Part shown: positions 13,916 through 48,800 of the stretch, one piece after another
Layout: every line of letters starts with the position of its first letter
Position numbering within the stretch: position 1 is the stretch's first letter
IMG/VR virus record: IMGVR_UViG_3300010370_000025
DNA length: 48,803 nt
Source of the DNA: a virus
Taxonomy: Duplodnaviria; Heunggongvirae; Uroviricota; Caudoviricetes
Reading direction: 5' to 3' (one strand)
Made by a program: the position numbers and the translations under genes
The notes under the pieces: model-generated
Database searches by the model: none
The model's input: the letters and a program-made list of their open reading frames with translations, nothing else
What the model was told of the DNA's origin: nothing

Positions 13916-14807
13916 AATTTAATTCTCTAAGAAGAGGAACATCAAACTTTTTAATATAATCTGTAAATTCTGTCATCTTTACTCTATTAGAATATGAAGC
14001 AATTTTATCTCTATATTCTTTATCAAGATCGGAATATAATTCAAATCCTGTTAATTTAGGTCTAGGCTCTAAATCAAACTCTTCCATAGCTAATTGACAT
14101 TTAACTTTATTAATATTAAGATATCTTTGTTTTTTAGCAGTCTCTACCCATCTATAAACCGACTCACGCTGTAAAAACGAAAGCATTAACTCTGGTGTAT
14201 ATTGAAAAAATGAAGGAATAATTTCTTTTTCTTTATTTTGAAAATATAATGCAAGTCTAGTTTCTTTTTCTTGTTCTATATCATATACTTGCAAACTATA
14301 TTTTGTTTCACCTTCATATTTTCTAGAAAGAAAATTCTCCCCCATTCCTAACACAGGTATACTATTAATTTTTTCTATACAATAAGCAAGAAGATTAAGT
14401 TGAGGGCTATTACATTTAGTCCTATATGCCATCTCTACAACTGAATTTTTAAAAAACATCTCTACGTTTATATCAAATATATCAGGAGATATTCCATACT
14501 TTGCGCATAGCCTTAATGCATAGTTAATATCGTGCATGTTAAGATTGCGCTCATATCTTATTATAGTAACTCTAGGAGTAATGCCAGCAGCTATAAAACT
14601 AAGCAACATTATTTCAGAATCAATTCCTCCACTTAAAAGCAGATCTAATTTGTTTCCGTGCTTATCGTAAAGCTCTTTAGCTACATTTATACATTCTTGT
14701 CTAAATGTTTTATGTGATTTAACCTTACCAAATTCAACCTTAAACTCATCTTCGTGATAAATTTTAAGATGATTATTTTTTGTATATTCAAAAATGTTTT
14801 TTTGCAT
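13902..14807 (-). CDS. PP-loop (asparagine-synthase-like) ATP pyrophosphatase
   Basis: LLLSGGIDSE PP-loop. Confidence 0.6.
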   Translation of the reverse strand: MQKNIFEYTKNNHLKIYHEDEFKVEFGKVKSHKTFRQECINVAKELYDKHGNKLDLLLSGGIDSEIMLLSFIAAGITPRVTIIRYERNLNMHDINYALRLCAKYGISPDIFDINVEMFFKNSVVEMAYRTKCNSPQLNLLAYCIEKINSIPVLGMGENFLSRKYEGETKYSLQVYDIEQEKETRLALYFQNKEKEIIPSFFQYTPELMLSFLQRESVYRWVETAKKQRYLNINKVKCQLAMEEFDLEPRPKLTGFELYSDLDKEYRDKIASYSNRVKMTEFTDYIKKFDVPLLRELNYEQN

Positions 14808-16188
14808 ATTCTAAAGCCAGTCCATTTGCTTGTTGACGAGCAGATGTATAATTAACATCGCTTAGGTTCATTTTCATAACTTCACTCATTGGTTTTTGAT
14901 ATGTAGCACTTAGTTCACCTAATAACCAGCCTCCTACACAACAATGAGGATCACACCATTCATTAGCTTGTAAAGCAGCTATCCTTATATGTTCGTGCCA
15001 CAGATTTTTATATTCCCAATTAATCATATTATTAGGTCTAAATTTAATATTATATGTATTATAGTTTCTATCAAACTCGCTCTGATATAGTTTCCCTGAA
15101 ACAGGATTAACATAAAGAGCCCACCATTTCCATCTATACATTTTATTATCTATGAGCCACTGCATATCTTTTTCAAGCTCACTATACGTCCATCCAGGTA
15201 TACCTAATATTAAACCTAAATGCCAATTAATTTTATTATCCCATCTCTCTCTGAGTTTAGGGAGAAAATCTTTTGCATGTGTACCTGACCAACTTTTACC
15301 TACTAGTTTAGCACTGTATGGATTAAATGTTTCTATACCAAAAAACGCGGATCTTAATCCACTTTCTTCTAACATATCTATAGTATGTGGTTTAGCCCAT
15401 AAAAGATCAGCTCTTAAAAATCCTAACCACTCAAGCTCAAACGGAACAGAGTTACGAAGTTTTACTAAATCTTTAAGTTTTTCCTCATCATCATTAATAG
15501 TATCATCTGTATAATAATATTTTGTAACACCCCATCGCTCATAGTTATACATAACTTCATCACGAAGATTTTCAAACGTTCTTGTATATGTACCTTTTTT
15601 CTTACCTATGTAAGGATAACTACAAAATTTACATTTAAATACACAACCTCTTCCAAGCTCTAATGTAAGAACTTCATGAGGATTAATATAATCGTTTTCT
15701 GTATACGTGCGTACAAAATTTTTAATATCGAACGAAGGTCTAACTATCTTAGCTCCAGACTTCTCATCAAAATATTTTAAAATATTATTTTCTGCATAAT
15801 CTGGCATTCTTAGCCATTTTAGATTACTATAAACTGAATTAGCATTTGCTCCTCCTAAAATCCATTCTATATTAGGATACTTGCTTTCTACCTTCTTTCT
15901 TGCTATACTCACCCATTCAGGAACTGGAATCACTACTTTCTTTACACCGTCTTGTATTTCTGTATCTAAATTCCAGAAAGTAGCACTACACCCAATTGCA
16001 TAAGTATCTCTAGTAATATACCTTTCGGTTAATTCCGCTATAATATCTGGTGATAAGTTATAACCGAAATCAATGACCTGTACAGTATATCCGTACTGTC
16101 GTAACCAGCTAGCAACCTGGTATGGTCCACCTGTTCTTAGTATAGAATGCACAATATCTGTGCCAGACCATATGATAAAATTAGCCAT
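14788..16188 (-). CDS. B12-binding-domain radical SAM protein
   Basis: GPYQVASWLRQYGYTVQVIDF, WILGG, ELGRGCVFKCKFC, GIET. Confidence 0.85.
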   Translation of the reverse strand: MANFIIWSGTDIVHSILRTGGPYQVASWLRQYGYTVQVIDFGYNLSPDIIAELTERYITRDTYAIGCSATFWNLDTEIQDGVKKVVIPVPEWVSIARKKVESKYPNIEWILGGANANSVYSNLKWLRMPDYAENNILKYFDEKSGAKIVRPSFDIKNFVRTYTENDYINPHEVLTLELGRGCVFKCKFCSYPYIGKKKGTYTRTFENLRDEVMYNYERWGVTKYYYTDDTINDDEEKLKDLVKLRNSVPFELEWLGFLRADLLWAKPHTIDMLEESGLRSAFFGIETFNPYSAKLVGKSWSGTHAKDFLPKLRERWDNKINWHLGLILGIPGWTYSELEKDMQWLIDNKMYRWKWWALYVNPVSGKLYQSEFDRNYNTYNIKFRPNNMINWEYKNLWHEHIRIAALQANEWCDPHCCVGGWLLGELSATYQKPMSEVMKMNLSDVNYTSARQQANGLALEYAKKHF

Positions 16189-16236
16189 ATCAGAAAAAAC
16201 TCAATGATTTCAAATAGTTATAAATTACAAAAAACA

Positions 16237-16265
16237 GTTGCTTTTTTAACGAAAACATACTATAA
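16237..16265 (+). promoter_or_regulatory. early sigma70-type promoter
   Basis: GTTGCT-N17-CTATAA preceded by AAAACA. Matches the repeated motif in this window. Confidence 0.65.
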
Positions 16266-16268
16266 ATA
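16261..16268 (+). promoter_or_regulatory. T4-type late promoter
   Basis: TATAAATA 4 nt before the ATG at 16273. Confidence 0.5.
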
Positions 16269-16272
16269 GAGT

Positions 16273-16416
16273 ATGATGAAGAAGAAACCTAAACAACGCA
16301 ACTTTGTTGCAATGTCACTCGCTGATAGAAAGTATCATCAGCGTACTGTTAAATCTCGTAAGGGTAAAGGCTCTTACGACCGCAAACGCATGGAGAAACG
16401 ATGCGAAAACTTCTAG
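16273..16416 (+). CDS. arfA: alternative ribosome-rescue factor A (47 aa, absent from ORF track)
   Basis: MMKKKPKQRNFVAMSLADRKYHQRTVKSRKGKGSYDRKRMEKRCENF. Aligns by eye with the E. coli ArfA core ...LFRQRVEKNKKGKGSYMRK. Confidence 0.8.
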   Translation: MMKKKPKQRNFVAMSLADRKYHQRTVKSRKGKGSYDRKRMEKRCENF

Positions 16417-16709
16417 CAGTAATCGCCGCTGCGTCTATTATTTATAGTACCTCGGCACAAGCAGACCAACGCCATATTAATGGATATGGCCATGGAAACT
16501 CTCACCACCATCATCACTATAATAATAACAATAACTGGGTATTCCCTCTTATTGGCGGTCTTATTATAGGCGGGGCTATTGCAAATGGCAACGGTTATTA
16601 TCAAGAGCGCCCCTATTACACCCGTCCTGTTCGCTGCTATCGCGAATTTACAGGTGAATACTGGAATGGTTGGGAATGGGTACAGACCTATCGCAAGGTT
16701 TGCTACTAA
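16401..16709 (+). CDS. secreted His/Asn-rich glycine-zipper protein
   Basis: Signal peptide ending AQA, HHHHHY-NNNNN tract, IGGLIIGGAIA, terminal Cys pair. Confidence 0.65.
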   Translation: MRKLLAVIAAASIIYSTSAQADQRHINGYGHGNSHHHHHYNNNNNWVFPLIGGLIIGGAIANGNGYYQERPYYTRPVRCYREFTGEYWNGWEWVQTYRKVCY

Positions 16710-16717
16710 AAAAAGTA

Positions 16718-16745
16718 GTTGCTTTAATTATAAAAGCAGCTATTA
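16718..16745 (+). promoter_or_regulatory. early promoter
   Basis: GTTGCT-N16-CTATTA upstream of DUF932. Confidence 0.55.
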
Positions 16746-16782
16746 TAATAGAGTAATGTGCAATTGAAATGGAGAAAGTGAA

Positions 16783-17721
16783 ATGGCACACGAAGTTGAG
16801 ACGATGGCTTACGCTGGAGAGACTCCCTGGCATGGCCTTGGTACTAAGGTTATCAATGATCTGACGCCTGCTCAGATGCTTGATAAGGCAGGACTTAACT
16901 GGACTGTCGAAAAGATTCCTACGTTCTGTGAAATCGATGGCAAGAAGATTCCTACTCAGGATTCTGCTCTTGTACGTTCTTCTGATAAGAAGATTCTGTC
17001 GGTTGTTTCAGGTGATTGGAACCCTGTGCAGAACGAAACTGCTTTTGAGTTCTTTAACGATTTTGTGATGGCAGGTGACATGGAAATGCATACTGCTGGA
17101 TCTCTTCGTGAAGGCAAGAATGTATGGGCACTTGCTAAGGTCAAGGACTCTTTTGAGATTCTTGGCGGGGATAAGGTTGAGTCTTATCTTCTGTTTTCTA
17201 ACCCGCATGAGTACGGTAAGTGTATTGACATTCGCTTTACTCCTATTCGAGTTGTATGTAACAATACTTTGACTCTTTCGCTTGCTGGTAAGTCTGATCT
17301 TATGGTCCGTCTTAACCATCGCCGTCAGTTTGATGCTGAAATGGTTAAGCAGACTCTGGGAGTTGCTCATACTAAGATGGCAACTTATAAGGAAGTTGCT
17401 GAGCATCTTTCTACTAAGCGTTATACTTCTGACTCGCTTACTGAATATCTTCAGTCTGTGTTTCCTGCTATGGTTAAGGAAAAGAATGCTAAGGTCCTTT
17501 CTCGTCCTGCTAACCAGGCTCTTGAAGTCATGGAAACGCAGCCCGGGGCTGACTTTGGTCGTGGTTCTTGGTGGCAGGCTTTCAATGCAGTGACCTATAC
17601 TACAGATCATTTGCTTGGGCATTCCAACGATACCCGTTTGCAGTCTGCGTGGTTCGGTCAGAACCGTCAGCGTAAAGTGCAAGCACTTGAAAAGGCGATT
17701 GAGTTCGCTGACGCTGCTTAA
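16783..17721 (+). CDS. DUF932-family phage protein
   Basis: MAHEVETMAYAGETPWHGLG, NPVQN..AFEFF, TPIRVVCNNTL. Confidence 0.85.
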   Translation: MAHEVETMAYAGETPWHGLGTKVINDLTPAQMLDKAGLNWTVEKIPTFCEIDGKKIPTQDSALVRSSDKKILSVVSGDWNPVQNETAFEFFNDFVMAGDMEMHTAGSLREGKNVWALAKVKDSFEILGGDKVESYLLFSNPHEYGKCIDIRFTPIRVVCNNTLTLSLAGKSDLMVRLNHRRQFDAEMVKQTLGVAHTKMATYKEVAEHLSTKRYTSDSLTEYLQSVFPAMVKEKNAKVLSRPANQALEVMETQPGADFGRGSWWQAFNAVTYTTDHLLGHSNDTRLQSAWFGQNRQRKVQALEKAIEFADAA

Positions 17722-17738
17722 TAAAGCCAGAGCAGGCA

Positions 17739-17765
17739 GGGGAGCTGGGAACAGCTCCCCTTTTT
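17739..17765 (+). terminator. intrinsic terminator
   Basis: GGGGAGCTG-GGAA-CAGCTCCCC-TTTTT. Confidence 0.85.
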
Positions 17766-19293: not shown

Positions 19294-19370
19294 GCCCCCA
19301 TAAACCAACAGGTAGAGTTAGGAGACTTAAAATCTCTGTAGTGTCAGTTCGAATCTGACTGGGGGCACCA
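19294..19370 (+). tRNA. tRNA-Leu(TAA), short variable loop
   Basis: Acceptor GCCCCCA/TGGGGGC, anticodon arm GGAGA-CTTAAAA-TCTCT, TTCGAAT T-loop, encoded CCA. Confidence 0.85.
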
Positions 19371-19392
19371 TTTACTATGATAGGAGTTACAA

Positions 19393-19485
19393 ATGCCTCA
19401 TCCGCACAAGAATCGCCCTAGCAAGGGTCGTCGTAAGATTGGATCTAAAAGGCGTAAGGCAAGGGCTAAGAATCGTAAAAATTAA
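19393..19485 (+). CDS. 30-aa highly basic micro-protein
   Basis: SD AGGAG, then MPHPHKNRPSKGRRKIGSKRRKARAKNRKN. Fills the gap between two tRNAs. Confidence 0.6.
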   Translation: MPHPHKNRPSKGRRKIGSKRRKARAKNRKN

Positions 19486-19491
19486 AGTTAC

Positions 19492-19567
19492 GGGCCTGTA
19501 GCTCAATGGTTAGAGCCAGCCGCTCATAACGGCTTGGTTGCAGGTTCGAGTCCTGCCGGGCCCACCA
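19492..19567 (+). tRNA. tRNA-Ile2(CAT)
   Basis: GGGCCTG/CGGGCCC acceptor, AGCCG-CTCATAA-CGGCT, CCA. Body resembles ileX-type tRNAs and has no initiator features. Confidence 0.8.
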
Positions 19568-22859: not shown

Positions 22860-23534
22860 ATGAAACTCCTAGCAAGACTGGCAACCTTTTTGTCATTCTT
22901 GATTATGGTAAACGTTGCTAATGCAGCAGGAAATAGTATCTATATAGACCAAATTGGCGACACTTCAACTATTTCTATTACTCAGACAGGTAACAGCAAC
23001 GAAATTGGAAGTGCAAATAGTAGAGCCATCATAGATGGTAATAGTAATTTAATAACAATAGATCAAATTGGTAACTCAAATATTCTTGATATGAATATTG
23101 AAGGTGATGGTAATGAAGTAACTCAAACAATTACTGGAGACAGTAACGACTTGAGCTTACTCTGCGCTACTTGTTCCATGGTAGTCATAACTGATACCAT
23201 TACAGGAAGCGGTAACGAGTTATCAAGAATAATTGACTCTGCTAGTGGAACATCAACTGTTGATATCCAGTCAGATAACAATACAGTAAGTATTAACAAT
23301 GATTCTTCAGCTATTTCTGGAGCATCAAGTGACATTTCTATTTCCGGTGGTAATGGAAATAACATTACGTTAAATCAAACTGGGGCAGCAGGACCTAATG
23401 GTCATAACGTTATTCTTAATGTAGTAGGTGCTACAAATACTGCTGTTATTGAACAGGGGGGAAATGTAGACAGCTATGTTAATGCGACTATTACTGGTTC
23501 TGATAACAATATTAATATCAACAGTAACTACTAA
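22860..23534 (+). CDS. curlin-like repeat protein (CsgA/CsgB-like)
   Basis: Signal peptide plus repeated x-I-x-Q/I-x-G-x-x-N beta-arc units (IDQIGDTS, ITQTGNSN, IDQIGNSN, IEGDGN, ITGDSN, IEQGGN, ITGSDN). Confidence 0.75.
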   Translation: MKLLARLATFLSFLIMVNVANAAGNSIYIDQIGDTSTISITQTGNSNEIGSANSRAIIDGNSNLITIDQIGNSNILDMNIEGDGNEVTQTITGDSNDLSLLCATCSMVVITDTITGSGNELSRIIDSASGTSTVDIQSDNNTVSINNDSSAISGASSDISISGGNGNNITLNQTGAAGPNGHNVILNVVGATNTAVIEQGGNVDSYVNATITGSDNNININSNY

Positions 23535-24570
23535 CGCTTCATCTGTAGGAACAATAACAGAACAATCTGGTCCTACAGAGATTAAAAGAAATAAAGAAGT
23601 AGTTCCTTCAGCTATTAATTCAGCAGTAGAGATGGATGACACCATCACTACTGCTAATGCTGTTGCTGGAATTACATTTGAAGATCAGACACAAGTGCAT
23701 ATAACTGAGCAATCTAAACTAGTTATTGATACGTTTGTTTATGATCCTAATAAAAATACTGGTAAATTAGCTATTAAGATCGCTTTAGGTACTGTAAAGT
23801 ATACTTCCGGACAAATAGCTAAACATAACCCGCAACAAGTAGCAGTTGAAACACCTACTGCTACTATTGGTGTAAGAGGAACTGATTTTTCTTCTACTGT
23901 TGACGAATTAGGAAGATCAACTATCGTTCTTCTTCCTTCTTGTCCTGCAGGTTGGAAAAATTTAGACAAAGACTGTACTGTAGGGAGTATTGTAGTATCT
24001 ACAGATGCTGGAGAAATTTGGCTTACTAAACCATTTGAGTCCACTTCGGTAGAATCGAGAGAAGCTAATCCTAGCAAATCTGCAATTCTTGATTTGAGTT
24101 TAAATCAAATTAACAATATGTTAATTGTATCACCTCCTAAAGGTTTGAAAAAAGTAGAAGTTACTAAGGAAGATTCAAAGACTGCTTTAGATACAGATCT
24201 TCTGTCAATAGATTTTTTAGAGTATAAAGAATTAGAAACTGACTATTTAGTAACCGATAGATTAAGTATTAATTTTCTTGACGTTAATGTATTTGAAGAT
24301 GCATTATCTATTCAAACCAGTCAATTTCTTCAAAGTGAATTAGTAGAATATAATTCACTTTTACCTAAATATGATAAGAATACTGGTCTAAATTATATTG
24401 TTGAAAATGATAGCGTAATGTTGTACAGACAAAATGTAAATCATTATGCAGAAATAAATGTTTCTACTACTTCAAGTTTAACATATGAATTGACTCAAGA
24501 TAATATTAATATAAAACAAATAATAAACAGCCCTGGTACAACTACAATATACATTAACCAATCATTATAG
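23476..24570 (+). CDS. periplasmic FecR-domain protein
   Basis: Signal peptide. D.I.T....GITFED.TQV.I...SKL and VETPTATIGVRGTDF are typical of FecR. Confidence 0.8.
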   Translation: MLMRLLLVLITILISTVTTNASSVGTITEQSGPTEIKRNKEVVPSAINSAVEMDDTITTANAVAGITFEDQTQVHITEQSKLVIDTFVYDPNKNTGKLAIKIALGTVKYTSGQIAKHNPQQVAVETPTATIGVRGTDFSSTVDELGRSTIVLLPSCPAGWKNLDKDCTVGSIVVSTDAGEIWLTKPFESTSVESREANPSKSAILDLSLNQINNMLIVSPPKGLKKVEVTKEDSKTALDTDLLSIDFLEYKELETDYLVTDRLSINFLDVNVFEDALSIQTSQFLQSELVEYNSLLPKYDKNTGLNYIVENDSVMLYRQNVNHYAEINVSTTSSLTYELTQDNINIKQIINSPGTTTIYINQSL

Positions 24571-42463: not shown

Positions 42464-42491
42464 TAATAGCTGCTTTCGTAAAAAAAGCAAC
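42464..42491 (-). promoter_or_regulatory. early promoter
   Basis: AACA-GTTGCT-N16-CTATTA. Confidence 0.55.
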
Positions 42492-45738: not shown

Positions 45739-45814
45739 GGACCCATAGCTCAATGGTTAGAGTACCGGTCTTTTAAACCGTAGGTTCTGGGTTCGAGTCC
45801 CAGTGGGTCCTCCA
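45739..45814 (+). tRNA. tRNA-Lys(TTT)
   Basis: GGACCCA/TGGGTCC, loop CTTTTAA, CCA. Confidence 0.9.
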
Positions 45815-45829
45815 TTTTATAGGTGTATC

Positions 45830-46126
45830 GTGCATAGCTTTAACTTCATAGGTCCTAAGTTCGATCCTAGTGTAGACAATAAGTTATTCCTAGACGATGA
45901 TACACTTATTCCTATTTTGGATCAAGACAAGACATTAGCACATCTCCTTGCACGTATTGGCAAGTTCAAATCTGTGGGAGATGCGAAACGAAACGGTTGG
46001 GATAAGCCTATTCCATCCGGATGGGTAGAGTTTACTGTCGGCAAGGGTATGAATAGAATTGATGTGTTCATATGGAACCCACAACATACCCTTGCCGAGT
46101 CAATAGAGGAATTTCCAGATTGTTAG
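45830..46126 (+). CDS. phage hypothetical protein (possible S4-like helix pair)
   Basis: LAHLLARIGKFKSVGDAKRNGWDKPIP. GTG start 45830. Confidence 0.6.
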   Translation: MHSFNFIGPKFDPSVDNKLFLDDDTLIPILDQDKTLAHLLARIGKFKSVGDAKRNGWDKPIPSGWVEFTVGKGMNRIDVFIWNPQHTLAESIEEFPDC

Positions 46127-46524
46127 AGTGTCTTATTCTAGGTGATTCAATTGCAGTCGGTGTTGGTTATAACAGACCTGAATGCGTTGTAGAGGCAAAA
46201 GTAGGTATCAATTCACAAGACTATGTTAATGGATTGTTCAGACACTTTGAACTCGTAGAAGCAAAAAAGACTATTATCAGTCTCGGGTCTAATGATTTTT
46301 ATGTAGAGTCCTATGGTCCAATGCTAGCTCTACGTGAACTTATCAAAGGCGATGTAATATGGATTCTCAGTTCAAATAACGAAGAGTCAAGATATGCTGC
46401 ATTAGCAATTGCTAAACACTATAATGATAGTGTTATAGATACGAAGTCTTATCCTATGAGTACAGATGGTGTTCATCCTACCGGTAAGGGATATAAGATG
46501 ATTTCAGATAATACGCGCCAGTAG
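46120..46524 (+). CDS. SGNH/GDSL hydrolase-like protein
   Basis: ILGDSIAVG (block I), SLGSND (block III), DGVHP (block V). TTG start after SD GAGG. Confidence 0.75.
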   Translation: MLECLILGDSIAVGVGYNRPECVVEAKVGINSQDYVNGLFRHFELVEAKKTIISLGSNDFYVESYGPMLALRELIKGDVIWILSSNNEESRYAALAIAKHYNDSVIDTKSYPMSTDGVHPTGKGYKMISDNTRQ

Positions 46525-46589
46525 CTCAGTGGTAGAGTAGCGGTCTCTTAAACCGAATGTTGTGAGTTCGATTCTCACCTGGCACACCA
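46515..46589 (+). tRNA. tRNA-Lys(CTT)
   Basis: GCGCCAG/CTGGCAC (one C:A mismatch), loop CTCTTAA, CCA. Confidence 0.85.
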
Positions 46590-46713
46590 AGATTACTCAG
46601 CGTTCTAGATAAGCTGGGGAGACGTCGCGAGAGTAACAAGAGGGAATGCTCGCTAATACAGGATTGCTGACTCAGTTCGCGAAAGGGCTTAACCTGTAAC
46701 GTGTACGGAATAT

Positions 46714-46787
46714 GCTGCATTAGCTCAATGGTAGAGCGCTGGTCTGTGGAACCAGTTACAGTAGTTCGATTCTACTATGCAGTACCA
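46714..46787 (+). tRNA. tRNA-His(GTG), lacking G-1, A73
   Basis: GCTGCAT/ATGCAGT, CTGGT-CTGTGGA-ACCAG. T at position -1, ACCA end. Confidence 0.9.
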
Positions 46788-46800
46788 AAGAATCTCGACT

Positions 46801-46875
46801 GCTCCGTTCGTCTATCGATTAGGATACCTGGTTCTCAGCCAGATGAGATGGGTTTGACTCCCATACGGAGTACCA
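46801..46875 (+). tRNA. tRNA-Glu(CTC)
   Basis: GCTCCGT/ACGGAGT, loop TTCTCAG, variant T-loop TTTGACT, CCA. Confidence 0.8.
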
Positions 46876-46921
46876 GTTTCGGGGAGCCCCCTGCGGGGGC
46901 TCGAATAGGATAAAAAAATAT

Positions 46922-46995
46922 TGGGAGATCGTCTAATGGTAGGATAGATGACTTTGACTCATTTGATCGTGGTTCGAGTCCACGTCTCCCAGCCA
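46922..46995 (+). tRNA. tRNA-Gln(TTG)
   Basis: TGGGAGA/TCTCCCA, ATGA-CTTTGAC-TCAT, GCCA. Confidence 0.9.
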
Positions 46996-47000
46996 AGTTT

Positions 47001-47086
47001 AGAGTGAGTTCAGCAAACAATCATTGATTGGTTCAATTCCAATATTTCCTCCTTAGGAAGTCTAGGGCACGGTGCCCATCACTCTG
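47001..47086 (+). ncRNA. CAGCAA-type tRNA-like element 1
   Basis: Closing stem AGAGTGA/TCACTCT, CAGCAA, internal TTGG-TTCAATT-CCAA T-arm-like hairpin. Confidence 0.6.
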
Positions 47087-47094
47087 TAAGTTTT

Positions 47095-47160
47095 AGGATC
47101 CCTACAGCAATTACAGCCGTAGAGGCACTTTTTTAGGGAAAAAGCAAAAAGTGGATCCTG
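47095..47160 (+). ncRNA. armless tRNA-like element 2 (anticodon loop AGG)
   Basis: AGGATCC/GGATCCT, ACAGCAA, CTTTT-TTAGGGA-AAAAG, GCAAAAAG. Confidence 0.65.
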
Positions 47161-47168
47161 TTCGTTTT

Positions 47169-47231
47169 AGGATTGTTACAGCAAATAAAATGCATTTGAC
47201 TTGTAATCAAAAGAAGCAAAAAGCAATCCTG
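47169..47231 (+). ncRNA. armless tRNA-like element 3 (anticodon loop TGT)
   Basis: AGGATTG/CAATCCT, ACAGCAA, TTTGA-CTTGTAA-TCAAA, GCAAAAAG. Confidence 0.7.
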
Positions 47232-47239
47232 TTCTATTT

Positions 47240-47314
47240 GGGGCGTTCGTCTATCGGCTAGGATACATCCCTTTCAAGGATACGAGACGGGTTCGACTCC
47301 CGTACGCCCTACCA
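47240..47314 (+). tRNA. tRNA-Glu(TTC)
   Basis: GGGGCGT/ACGCCCT, ATCC-CTTTCAA-GGAT, CCA. Confidence 0.9.
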
Positions 47315-47333
47315 AACACACGGAGACTATACT

Positions 47334-47768
47334 ATGAAGATTCTTATTATGGGGTTGCCTGGTTCAGGTAAGACTACACTAGCAGTAGAACTAGCAAAGC
47401 TTTTAAAAGCAGTGCATTGGAATGCTGATAGCGTTAGACAAAATATTAATACTCATTTAGGGTTTTCAGAAGAAGATAGAATTGAACAAGCCCGTAGAAT
47501 GGGATGGCTCTGCGATCAAGTCGTAAATAGTGGTCATGCCGCTATTGCTGACTTTGTTTGTCCTACATTGAAAACACGTGTTGCATTTGGTCCTAGTGAT
47601 TATATAATCTGGATGGATACTATTCAAGAAAGCCGTTTTGATGATACAAATAAACTGTTCGTTAAACCTGCTAAATATAGTTTTCGCGTAGATTCTTTAA
47701 ATGCCAGTTATTGGTCATATGATATCTACGATCAGATTATGAAAAGGCAGCAATATGTGGAACAATAA
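47334..47768 (+). CDS. adenylyl-sulfate (APS) kinase-like P-loop kinase
   Basis: MGLPGSGKTTLA, NADSVR, FSEEDRIEQARR, DFVCPT. Confidence 0.8.
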   Translation: MKILIMGLPGSGKTTLAVELAKLLKAVHWNADSVRQNINTHLGFSEEDRIEQARRMGWLCDQVVNSGHAAIADFVCPTLKTRVAFGPSDYIIWMDTIQESRFDDTNKLFVKPAKYSFRVDSLNASYWSYDIYDQIMKRQQYVEQ

Positions 47769-48117
47769 ACATCCTACTGTGCAAATGCTAGGTAGATGGC
47801 AGCCATGGCATGAAGGACACTTTCAACTGTTCTTACGTGCTTATCAAAAAACAGGTCAAGTTTGTATCATGGTGAGAGATACACAAGGTACAGATAGTAG
47901 TAACCCTTTTGACTTTGAAACAGTACGTAATAGAATAGTCAAAGAATTAGGAAAAAAAGGGTTTAATAATAACGAACACTTTATTGTAAAGCTCGTTCCT
48001 AACATCGTAAATATTACATACGGTAGAGATGTAGGATACGTAATTGAACAAGAAACGTTTAGTAGTGAGATACATGATATATCCGCTACTCAGATACGTA
48101 AAGAAATGGGATTATAA
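47755..48117 (+). CDS. cytidylyltransferase-like nucleotidyltransferase (HxGH)
   Basis: GRWQPWHEGH, NPF, ISATQIR. Confidence 0.8.
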   Translation: MWNNKHPTVQMLGRWQPWHEGHFQLFLRAYQKTGQVCIMVRDTQGTDSSNPFDFETVRNRIVKELGKKGFNNNEHFIVKLVPNIVNITYGRDVGYVIEQETFSSEIHDISATQIRKEMGL

Positions 48118-48194
48118 GTCTGTGTAGTCCAACTGGTAGAGACACTAGCTTGAGGTGCTAGGCGTTGGAGGTTCGAATCCTCTCATAGACACCA
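48118..48194 (+). tRNA. tRNA-Leu(GAG), short variable loop
   Basis: GTCTGTG/CATAGAC, CTAGC-TTGAGGT-GCTAG, CCA. Confidence 0.85.
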
Positions 48195-48201
48195 GAATAC
48201 A

Positions 48202-48233
48202 GTTGCCTTTTATTACAGAAGGTACTATAAATA
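48202..48233 (+). promoter_or_regulatory. overlapping early promoter and TATAAATA late promoter
   Basis: GTTGCC-N17-CTATAA, with TATAAATA at 48226-48233, upstream of tRNA-Asn. Confidence 0.65.
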
Positions 48234-48247
48234 TAAAATAAAGTCAT

Positions 48248-48324
48248 TTCACGGTAGCTCAGTTGGTAGTAGCATCTGACTGTTAATCAGAGGGTCCCTG
48301 GTTCGAGCTCAGGCCGTGGAGCCA
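48248..48324 (+). tRNA. tRNA-Asn(GTT)
   Basis: TTCACGG/CCGTGGA, TCTGA-CTGTTAA-TCAGA, GCCA. Confidence 0.9.
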
Positions 48325-48328
48325 ATTT

Positions 48329-48418
48329 GGAAGTGTGGGAGAGTGGTTTAATCCGTCGGTCTTGAAAACCGAAGAACCTGCGAGGGTTCCGTGAGTTCGA
48401 ATCTCACCGCTTCCGCCA
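48329..48418 (+). tRNA. tRNA-Ser(TGA)
   Basis: GGAAGTG/CGCTTCC, TCGGT-CTTGAAA-ACCGA, long variable arm, GCCA. Confidence 0.95.
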
Positions 48419-48432
48419 TTTAGGAATATATT

Positions 48433-48720
48433 ATGAGCCCCGAAAAGAAAGCGATTCGTGACCTTTGGCTGACTTATAAACTGTACGGTGAATGCCAGAA
48501 AGTATATAAGAAAGATCTCGATACCAGTAAATATGCTTCCGAGTGTACTGATGGGTTTCTTGAGTATCTAGCCGAGTGTTGTAAGAGTTATCCTAAGTGG
48601 AAAGATAATATCGAAGGTGTTATTCGTAACCAGATCCGTATCTATATGGGGTTTGTTGAGACGTATAATAAACCTATCGTAAAAGATAAAGTAACGCAGA
48701 AGACTCGTTGGTCTCTGTAA
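48433..48720 (+). CDS. hypothetical protein
   Basis: SD AGGA, 95 aa, between two tRNAs. Confidence 0.6.
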   Translation: MSPEKKAIRDLWLTYKLYGECQKVYKKDLDTSKYASECTDGFLEYLAECCKSYPKWKDNIEGVIRNQIRIYMGFVETYNKPIVKDKVTQKTRWSL

Positions 48721-48723
48721 TAT

Positions 48724-48800
<77 letters not shown>

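Follow-up and report, generated by a model that had tools for sequence, protein, structure and literature searches.

The phage DNA studied here carries a 47-codon gene, arfA, that is very probably a genuine member of the ArfA family of ribosome-rescue factors. The gene lies on the plus strand of a 48,803-nucleotide stretch assigned to the Caudoviricetes (IMG/VR record IMGVR_UViG_3300010370_000025), which we refer to in its entirety as the window. We think it reasonably likely that the product is an RF2-dependent rescue factor, made from a leaderless early mRNA and exempt from the tmRNA feedback that governs its Escherichia coli counterpart.

The open reading frame begins with ATG, ends with TAG, and specifies exactly the residues quoted in the initial annotation, which had described a 47-residue protein with an ArfA core. 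Residues 11-40 match the Pfam ArfA family (PF03889; E = 1.1e-6) with 28.4 bits, the gathering cut-off being 25.5; this is the HMM comparison that the annotation had proposed, and the margin of only 3 bits is expected given so short a protein. With the same query, a phmmer search of the PDB returned only chains of E. coli ArfA (E ~0.008), residues 9-40 aligning without gaps to E. coli residues 13-44. Two homologues of exactly 47 residues, 89% and 77% identical, were found in a search of 5.8 billion proteins, and the contigs of both have in common the gene order radical SAM (minus strand), arfA, a gene for a protein of 99-102 residues, DUF932. Comparison of the window with the related locus L002 reveals 13 synonymous and 11 non-synonymous codon changes in the arfA frame, whereas the same differences give synonymous/non-synonymous counts of 1/22 and 2/19 in the other two frames. 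A synonymous excess confined to the arfA frame, together with the existence of homologues, indicates a real protein-coding gene under purifying selection. The methionine at residue 14 was considered as the true start and rejected, since homologues have lysine there and the conservation of residues 9-13 is accompanied by synonymous changes. No identical protein is on record, no NCBIfam model matches the open reading frame, and PHROGs offers only weak matches to families of unknown function; megablast of the 2 kb around arfA against the phage collection gave no match and no close phage record. The gene had been described as missed by the open reading frame track, and it is indeed absent there, but a mere length threshold is responsible: gene callers found the 47-residue homologues, with PF03889 attached.

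The elements of the transcription unit to which arfA appears to belong are as follows.

16238-16243, plus strand: -35-like hexamer TTGCTT, within the recurrent motif CAGTTGCTTTTTTAA (16235-16249); invariant in L001-L004.
16261-16266, plus strand: -10 hexamer TATAAA, separated from the -35 hexamer by 17 nt and from the ATG by 6 nt; its register is shared by the -10 hexamers of the other motif copies.
16273-16416, plus strand: arfA-like coding sequence, 47 residues, TAG stop, identified by Pfam, phmmer, homologues and codon changes.
16356-16379, plus strand: 10-bp RNA hairpin over the RKGKGSYD codons (fold z -2.2 for the whole 178 nt), with no U run after it.
16392-16395, plus strand: GGAG Shine-Dalgarno sequence of the downstream gene, inside the 3' end of arfA, in a stretch invariant in relatives.
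16401-16709, plus strand: gene for a 102-residue protein, overlapping arfA by 16 nt; a conserved partner of arfA in L001, L002, L007 and L009.
16717-16749, plus strand: second copy of the promoter motif, then a leader with GGAG before the DUF932 gene, read from the sequence.
16783-17721, plus strand: DUF932 gene (PF06067, 145.6 bits), the last of the unit.
17738-17761, plus strand: intrinsic-terminator-like hairpin of 10 pairs (7 G-C) followed by a T run, closing the arfA-orf102-DUF932 unit.

Upstream, a gap of 84 nt separates arfA from a divergent radical-SAM gene (14788-16188, minus strand). In the protein encoded immediately downstream, a signal peptide is combined with His-rich and Gly-zipper-like stretches and with a C-terminal Cys...WNGW(E/R)WV...Cys element (WNGWEWV here). 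It matches no Pfam or PHROG family above threshold, and a protein atlas returned, besides clusters of hypothetical viral proteins, just a weak lead to BA14K. The phage itself is T4-like: its family-B DNA polymerase shares about 52% identity with cyanomyovirus polymerases, and it has a DnaB-type helicase and many radical-SAM genes. In two relatives without the radical-SAM island (L007:2531-6999 and L009:2553-6966), the order of genes is gp45, gp44, gp62, regA, arfA, a secreted His-rich protein, a methyltransferase and DUF932, with the gene for the translational repressor RegA (PF01818, 143 bits) directly before arfA. This adjacency implies that the radical-SAM/SET/aminotransferase island of the window was inserted between regA and arfA. 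The window also contains twelve tRNA genes (19294-19567 and 45739-48800; two each for Leu, Lys and Glu, and one each for Met, His, Gln, Asn, Ser and Pro) and no tmRNA gene. Elsewhere in it, a CHASE2-adenylate/guanylate cyclase gene (PF05226 and PF00211; 24919-26949) lies beside a FecR-domain gene (23476-24570).

An early-type promoter had been proposed for arfA in the form GTTGCT-N17-CTATAA. The hexamers are present, although the better register is TTGCTT, 17 nt, TATAAA. In this register six further copies of the motif are present in the window, at 16717(+), 20569(+), 40729(-), 40959(-), 41660(-) and 42479(-), each copy standing upstream of a gene in the right orientation with a -10-like hexamer in the same position, and the recurrent form can be written (C/T)AGTTGC(T/A)TTTT...N...TAnnAT. 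At arfA, the stretch running from CAGTTGCTTTTTTAA to TATAAATA is invariant in the related loci L001-L004, and the sequence upstream of it varies. We conclude that the recurrent motif is probably the early, host-sigma-70-type promoter of this phage. A generic promoter scan omits the copy at arfA because a call there demands T as the final base of the -10, and TTGCTT agrees with the -35 consensus at only three of six positions; the promoter call is therefore based on recurrence and conservation rather than on consensus score. A T4 MotA-box middle promoter (TGCTT) was also considered. MotA boxes of T4 are expected at about -30, whereas 17 nt separate the motif in question from the -10 hexamer, the distance of a -35 element, and this candidate was rejected.

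Other copies of the motif are followed by a leader of 20-35 nt before the likely start codon, mostly with a GGAG-type site, whereas the arfA ATG begins 6 nt after the -10 hexamer and is preceded by no Shine-Dalgarno sequence. More distant relatives (L005-L010), whose proteins are 50-58% identical, display TTGATT or TTGCAT, 17 nt, TATTAT or TATATT, 6 nt and ATG, bringing to eight the loci in which the geometry of -10, 6 nt and ATG is seen (L001, L002 and L005-L010). The six nucleotides themselves differ between lineages (tagagt, taatgt, attaat, aataat, tataat, aatatt), and no alternative in-frame start of arfA is conserved among the relatives. From the retention of spacing despite divergence of the spacer, and from the lack of another conserved start, we infer a leaderless mRNA that begins 5'-AUGAUG; its 5' end, as predicted from promoter geometry, would likely fall at or next to A16273. 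Leaderless mRNAs are known, lambda cI transcribed from PRM being an example, and the phage gene is alike in having a -10 hexamer that ends 6 nt before the ATG and no Shine-Dalgarno sequence, with the distinction that the transcription start proposed here is derived from geometry. Clear Shine-Dalgarno sequences precede 25 of the 59 likely genes in the window, so their absence at arfA means little when taken alone. In L007 and L009, read-through from regA could also give leadered arfA transcripts. Several copies of the promoter motif in the window have an ATG 5-9 nt from the -10 hexamer, and at 42479(-) this ATG opens a 39-codon reading frame that might be a second leaderless small gene.

A further point concerns the end of the gene. 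Translation of arfA in E. coli uses an mRNA cut short at an internal hairpin, and tmRNA normally tags the product for removal (PMC8012679). Under regulation of this type, the message is rendered non-stop by RNase III cleavage of a hairpin or by a terminator inside the open reading frame; the phage gene has neither, and terminates at an ordinary TAG located 11 codons after KGKGSY. An in-frame stop a few codons beyond the basic tail is kept in all eight members of the clade, three close and five more distant, and we found no terminator and no long or RNase III hairpin between the motif and the stop. The stop is TAA in L005-L010, as opposed to TAG here and in the SAR11 copies described below. With an ordinary, conserved stop codon and no terminator or long hairpin before it, tmRNA feedback would not be expected. 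To this extent the initial annotation, which had noted a gene with its own stop and no C-terminal tail, is supported by the sequence. For its further suggestion, that the factor may counter host defences that cleave mRNA or tRNA, the sequence holds no indication either way. One hairpin does lie within the gene, over the RKGKGSYD codons (16356-16379), and it is retained in 7 of the 8 clade members; codons in the stem hardly vary, codons in the loop do, and no compensatory changes occur among the eight relatives. Its retention may just reflect conserved codons. We rejected it as an E. coli-like processing site because it comprises only 10 bp, sits inside the essential KGKGSY codons and lacks both a following U run and compensatory changes.

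Comparison with E. coli ArfA (YhdL; PF03889; PDB 5MGP, 5MDV, 5U4I, 5H5U and 7OJ0), for which the roles of individual residues have been described (PMC8012679), indicates which functions the phage protein could retain. The two share the core N-x-x-(A)-x-L, an aromatic residue, the QRxV strand and the KGKGSY-RK tail. In the E. coli protein, the basic tail KKGKGSY-RK fills the empty mRNA entry channel, and the aromatic F25 and strand Q27-E30, which adds to the RF2 beta-sheet, dock onto RF2 (PMC8012679). The corresponding phage tail is RKGKGSYDRK (residues 29-38, aligned to E. coli 33-42). The RF2-docking elements are likewise kept in the alignment, with Y21 (Phe in P0001 and P0002) at the position of F25 and Q23-R24-T25-V26 at Q27-E30. 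At 47 residues, the phage protein lacks the hydrophobic tail of the 72-residue E. coli protein, its last residue corresponding to E. coli residue 51. It covers the part of E. coli ArfA that is ordered on the ribosome, extending past both the 46-48 ordered residues and the 40-residue truncation, which is inactive (PMC8012679). Other features diverge. The K44-H45 motif, which binds a pocket of the entry channel in E. coli ArfA, is absent, the aligned residues being M40-E41, and phage residues 1-9 form a shorter, basic N-terminus unrelated to E. coli residues 1-13. In E. coli ArfA the N-terminal segment becomes ordered together with the RF2 switch loop and is needed for open, active RF2, and the A18T variant binds and recruits RF2 with no hydrolysis, its activation of RF2 being abolished (PMC8012679). 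The small residue at A18 is not kept in the phage protein: the aligned residue is M14, which is Lys in most of the short ArfAs, and the invariant Ala of the family lies one position before the A18 equivalent; a register shift of one residue is possible. Given the effect of A18T in E. coli and the presence of Met or Lys at the aligned position, the phage peptide may or may not activate RF2. A prediction of the complex between the phage peptide (alignment A3) and E. coli RF2 gave no answer (score 0.01), which counts neither for nor against an interaction, given that the two proteins come together only on the ribosome.

Genes of this kind are present in other phages. A profile-free exhaustive search of 1.8 billion representatives returned ten matches, all of 39-62 residues, and a scan of IMG/VR located twelve viral loci with ArfA-like open reading frames, whose length is about 39-83 residues according to which start is taken and all of which have a stop of their own; PF03889 scores of the relatives range from 26 to 37 bits. 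ArfA is annotated in Brevundimonas jumbo phages (e.g., BAMBUS_05560, 39 residues) and in Citromicrobium phage RXM (g10, 60 residues; PMC8953757), gp30 of pelagiphage HTVC027P has been described as a highly transcribed ArfA (PMC12753301), and pelagiphage HTVC034P encodes an unannotated ArfA-like protein of 41 residues, gp63. These proteins resemble that of the window in being short and stop-terminated, with about 45-58% identity over the core, and they occur in other phage groups and other genomic contexts. Phage ArfA genes are thus already known from GenBank annotation and two papers, and the present gene is not a new kind of thing; its description as hidden was overstated, considering that short, stop-terminated forms are annotated in Brevundimonas and Citromicrobium phages, reported in HTVC027P and chromosomal in SAR11. 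What the window adds is the conserved leaderless promoter geometry, the adjacency to regA, the coupling to a secreted protein and the tie to chromosomal short ArfAs of SAR11, the first three of these being established here for the T4-like clade only. We found no functional test of any phage ArfA in the literature consulted.

In cells, surveys have placed ArfA in gamma- and some betaproteobacteria only, besides BrfA in the Bacillus subtilis group, and in 0 of 2,376 alphaproteobacterial genomes (PMC11633108; PMC8012679). Our scan of one genome per prokaryotic species identified 45 ArfA-like loci, 30 of which belong to Pelagibacteraceae (SAR11); the enterobacterial loci have the classical long form with the hydrophobic tail. 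The nearest cellular relatives of the phage protein are the SAR11 open reading frames, which are about 38 residues long and exceed the Pfam ArfA cut-off with 28-29 bits (e.g., L029:1498-1614; the loci fall among L017-L051). They are 43-59% identical to the phage protein, with a common N-x-x-A-K-x-L ... KGKGSY-RK pattern and their own stop, but are 9 residues shorter and, since their start lies in an overlap with the gene before them, not leaderless. The chromosomal neighbourhood is conserved, with a Trans_reg_C regulator upstream in 29 of 30 cases, a convergent PfkB kinase in all 30 and Nth in 24. TAG is the stop codon of arfA in 27 of 30 SAR11 species, compared with 15 of 85 neighbouring open reading frames. 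Because the short, stop-terminated form is chromosomal in SAR11, it is not a phage invention, and the relationship suggests a SAR11-like host of the phage or donor of its arfA. A different alphaproteobacterium, Mesorhizobium sp. SP-1A, has an ArfA-like core that continues into a long open tail (L041:1501-1803), and this may be an ArfA of the long-form or non-stop type.

We propose that the host-sigma-70-type early promoter would produce a leaderless arfA mRNA devoid of a Shine-Dalgarno sequence, and that its synthesis into protein, ending at an ordinary stop with no terminator or RNase III hairpin before it, would not be throttled by tmRNA. The overlapping gene for the secreted 102-residue protein would be translated from its own GGAG. 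Phage ArfA would then bind host ribosomes stalled at the 3' ends of truncated mRNAs and recruit host RF2, leading to release of the peptide and the return of ribosomes to phage translation.

Other accounts of the gene differ from this proposal in how it is expressed or in what its product does. The initial annotation had postulated that the early promoter overlaps a late promoter of T4 type, TATAAATA, an arrangement that could give leadered or near-leadered transcripts throughout infection. The octamer is present at 16261-16268, overlapping the -10 hexamer TATAAA, and is kept in L001-L004; moreover, arfA of HTVC027P is reported to be highly expressed both early and late (PMC12753301). Against these observations, the octamer occurs 7 times in the window where 9.7 occurrences are expected by chance, and is therefore not enriched, and L005-L010 lack it, having at the same place only the -10 hexamers TATTAT or TATATT. 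With T4 geometry it would direct initiation to a point within or just after the first ATG, and the window has no late genes from which a late motif of this phage could be defined. The octamer is most simply read as the -10 hexamer with two bases added, which accounts for it fully, and a dual promoter is not supported; we regard the overlapping arrangement as unlikely.

A second alternative assigns the gene product a different activity, in which the peptide occupies the A site on truncated mRNA with no activation of RF2, either blocking tmRNA-SmpB, so that phage products are neither tagged nor degraded, or holding host ribosomes. Such a ribosome-binding decoy would be in keeping with a protein whose best-conserved part is the tail that probes the channel, whose N-terminal activating segment is divergent and which carries a bulky Met or Lys at the equivalent of A18, especially as binding and RF2 recruitment by E. 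coli ArfA(A18T) are not followed by hydrolysis (PMC8012679). The RF2-docking elements are conserved too, however, both the aromatic residue at F25 and the QRxV strand; the same architecture is chromosomal in SAR11, where an inhibitor of rescue is hard to explain, and locked ribosomes would cost the phage translation capacity. On balance, we consider a decoy improbable. Less probable still is that arfA has no selected role of its own, as either a recently captured host gene or a translated leader delivering ribosomes to the secreted-protein gene. The 16-nt overlap, the location of the downstream GGAG inside arfA and the conservation of the two genes as a pair are what might be seen with an upstream open reading frame of that sort. 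They have to be set against purifying selection on the peptide, ArfA matches in phages that do not have this neighbour (L012-L016), and the strong ribosome-binding site that the downstream gene possesses of its own. RF2-dependent rescue by a conserved phage protein continues to be the reading we prefer.

A broader scenario, which we put forward tentatively and think possible rather than likely, connects the phage gene with its chromosomal relatives. According to this scenario, ArfAs of 37-47 residues would constitute a distinct subfamily that ends at an ordinary stop codon (the RF1-only TAG in 27 of 30 SAR11 species and in this phage) and is not subject to tmRNA feedback. A core gene of SAR11 would have been captured by T4-like phages, placed beside regA and expressed from a leaderless early mRNA that evades controls acting at ribosome-binding sites, whether of the RegA/RegB type or exerted by host or defence nucleases, and rescue could then continue during mRNA destruction. 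That the leaderless message escapes repression or cleavage aimed at ribosome-binding sites is speculation on our part. If the protein is active, it would be a rescue factor made by a phage and exempt from the tmRNA feedback of the cell, and would show phages to be controlling how many free ribosomes are available at a time when mRNA is being shredded by the phage or by host defences. Together, the predicted leaderless design of the phage gene and the short ArfAs of SAR11 suggest that ArfA-type rescue is wider, and more variously regulated, than the textbook picture drawn from beta- and gammaproteobacteria.
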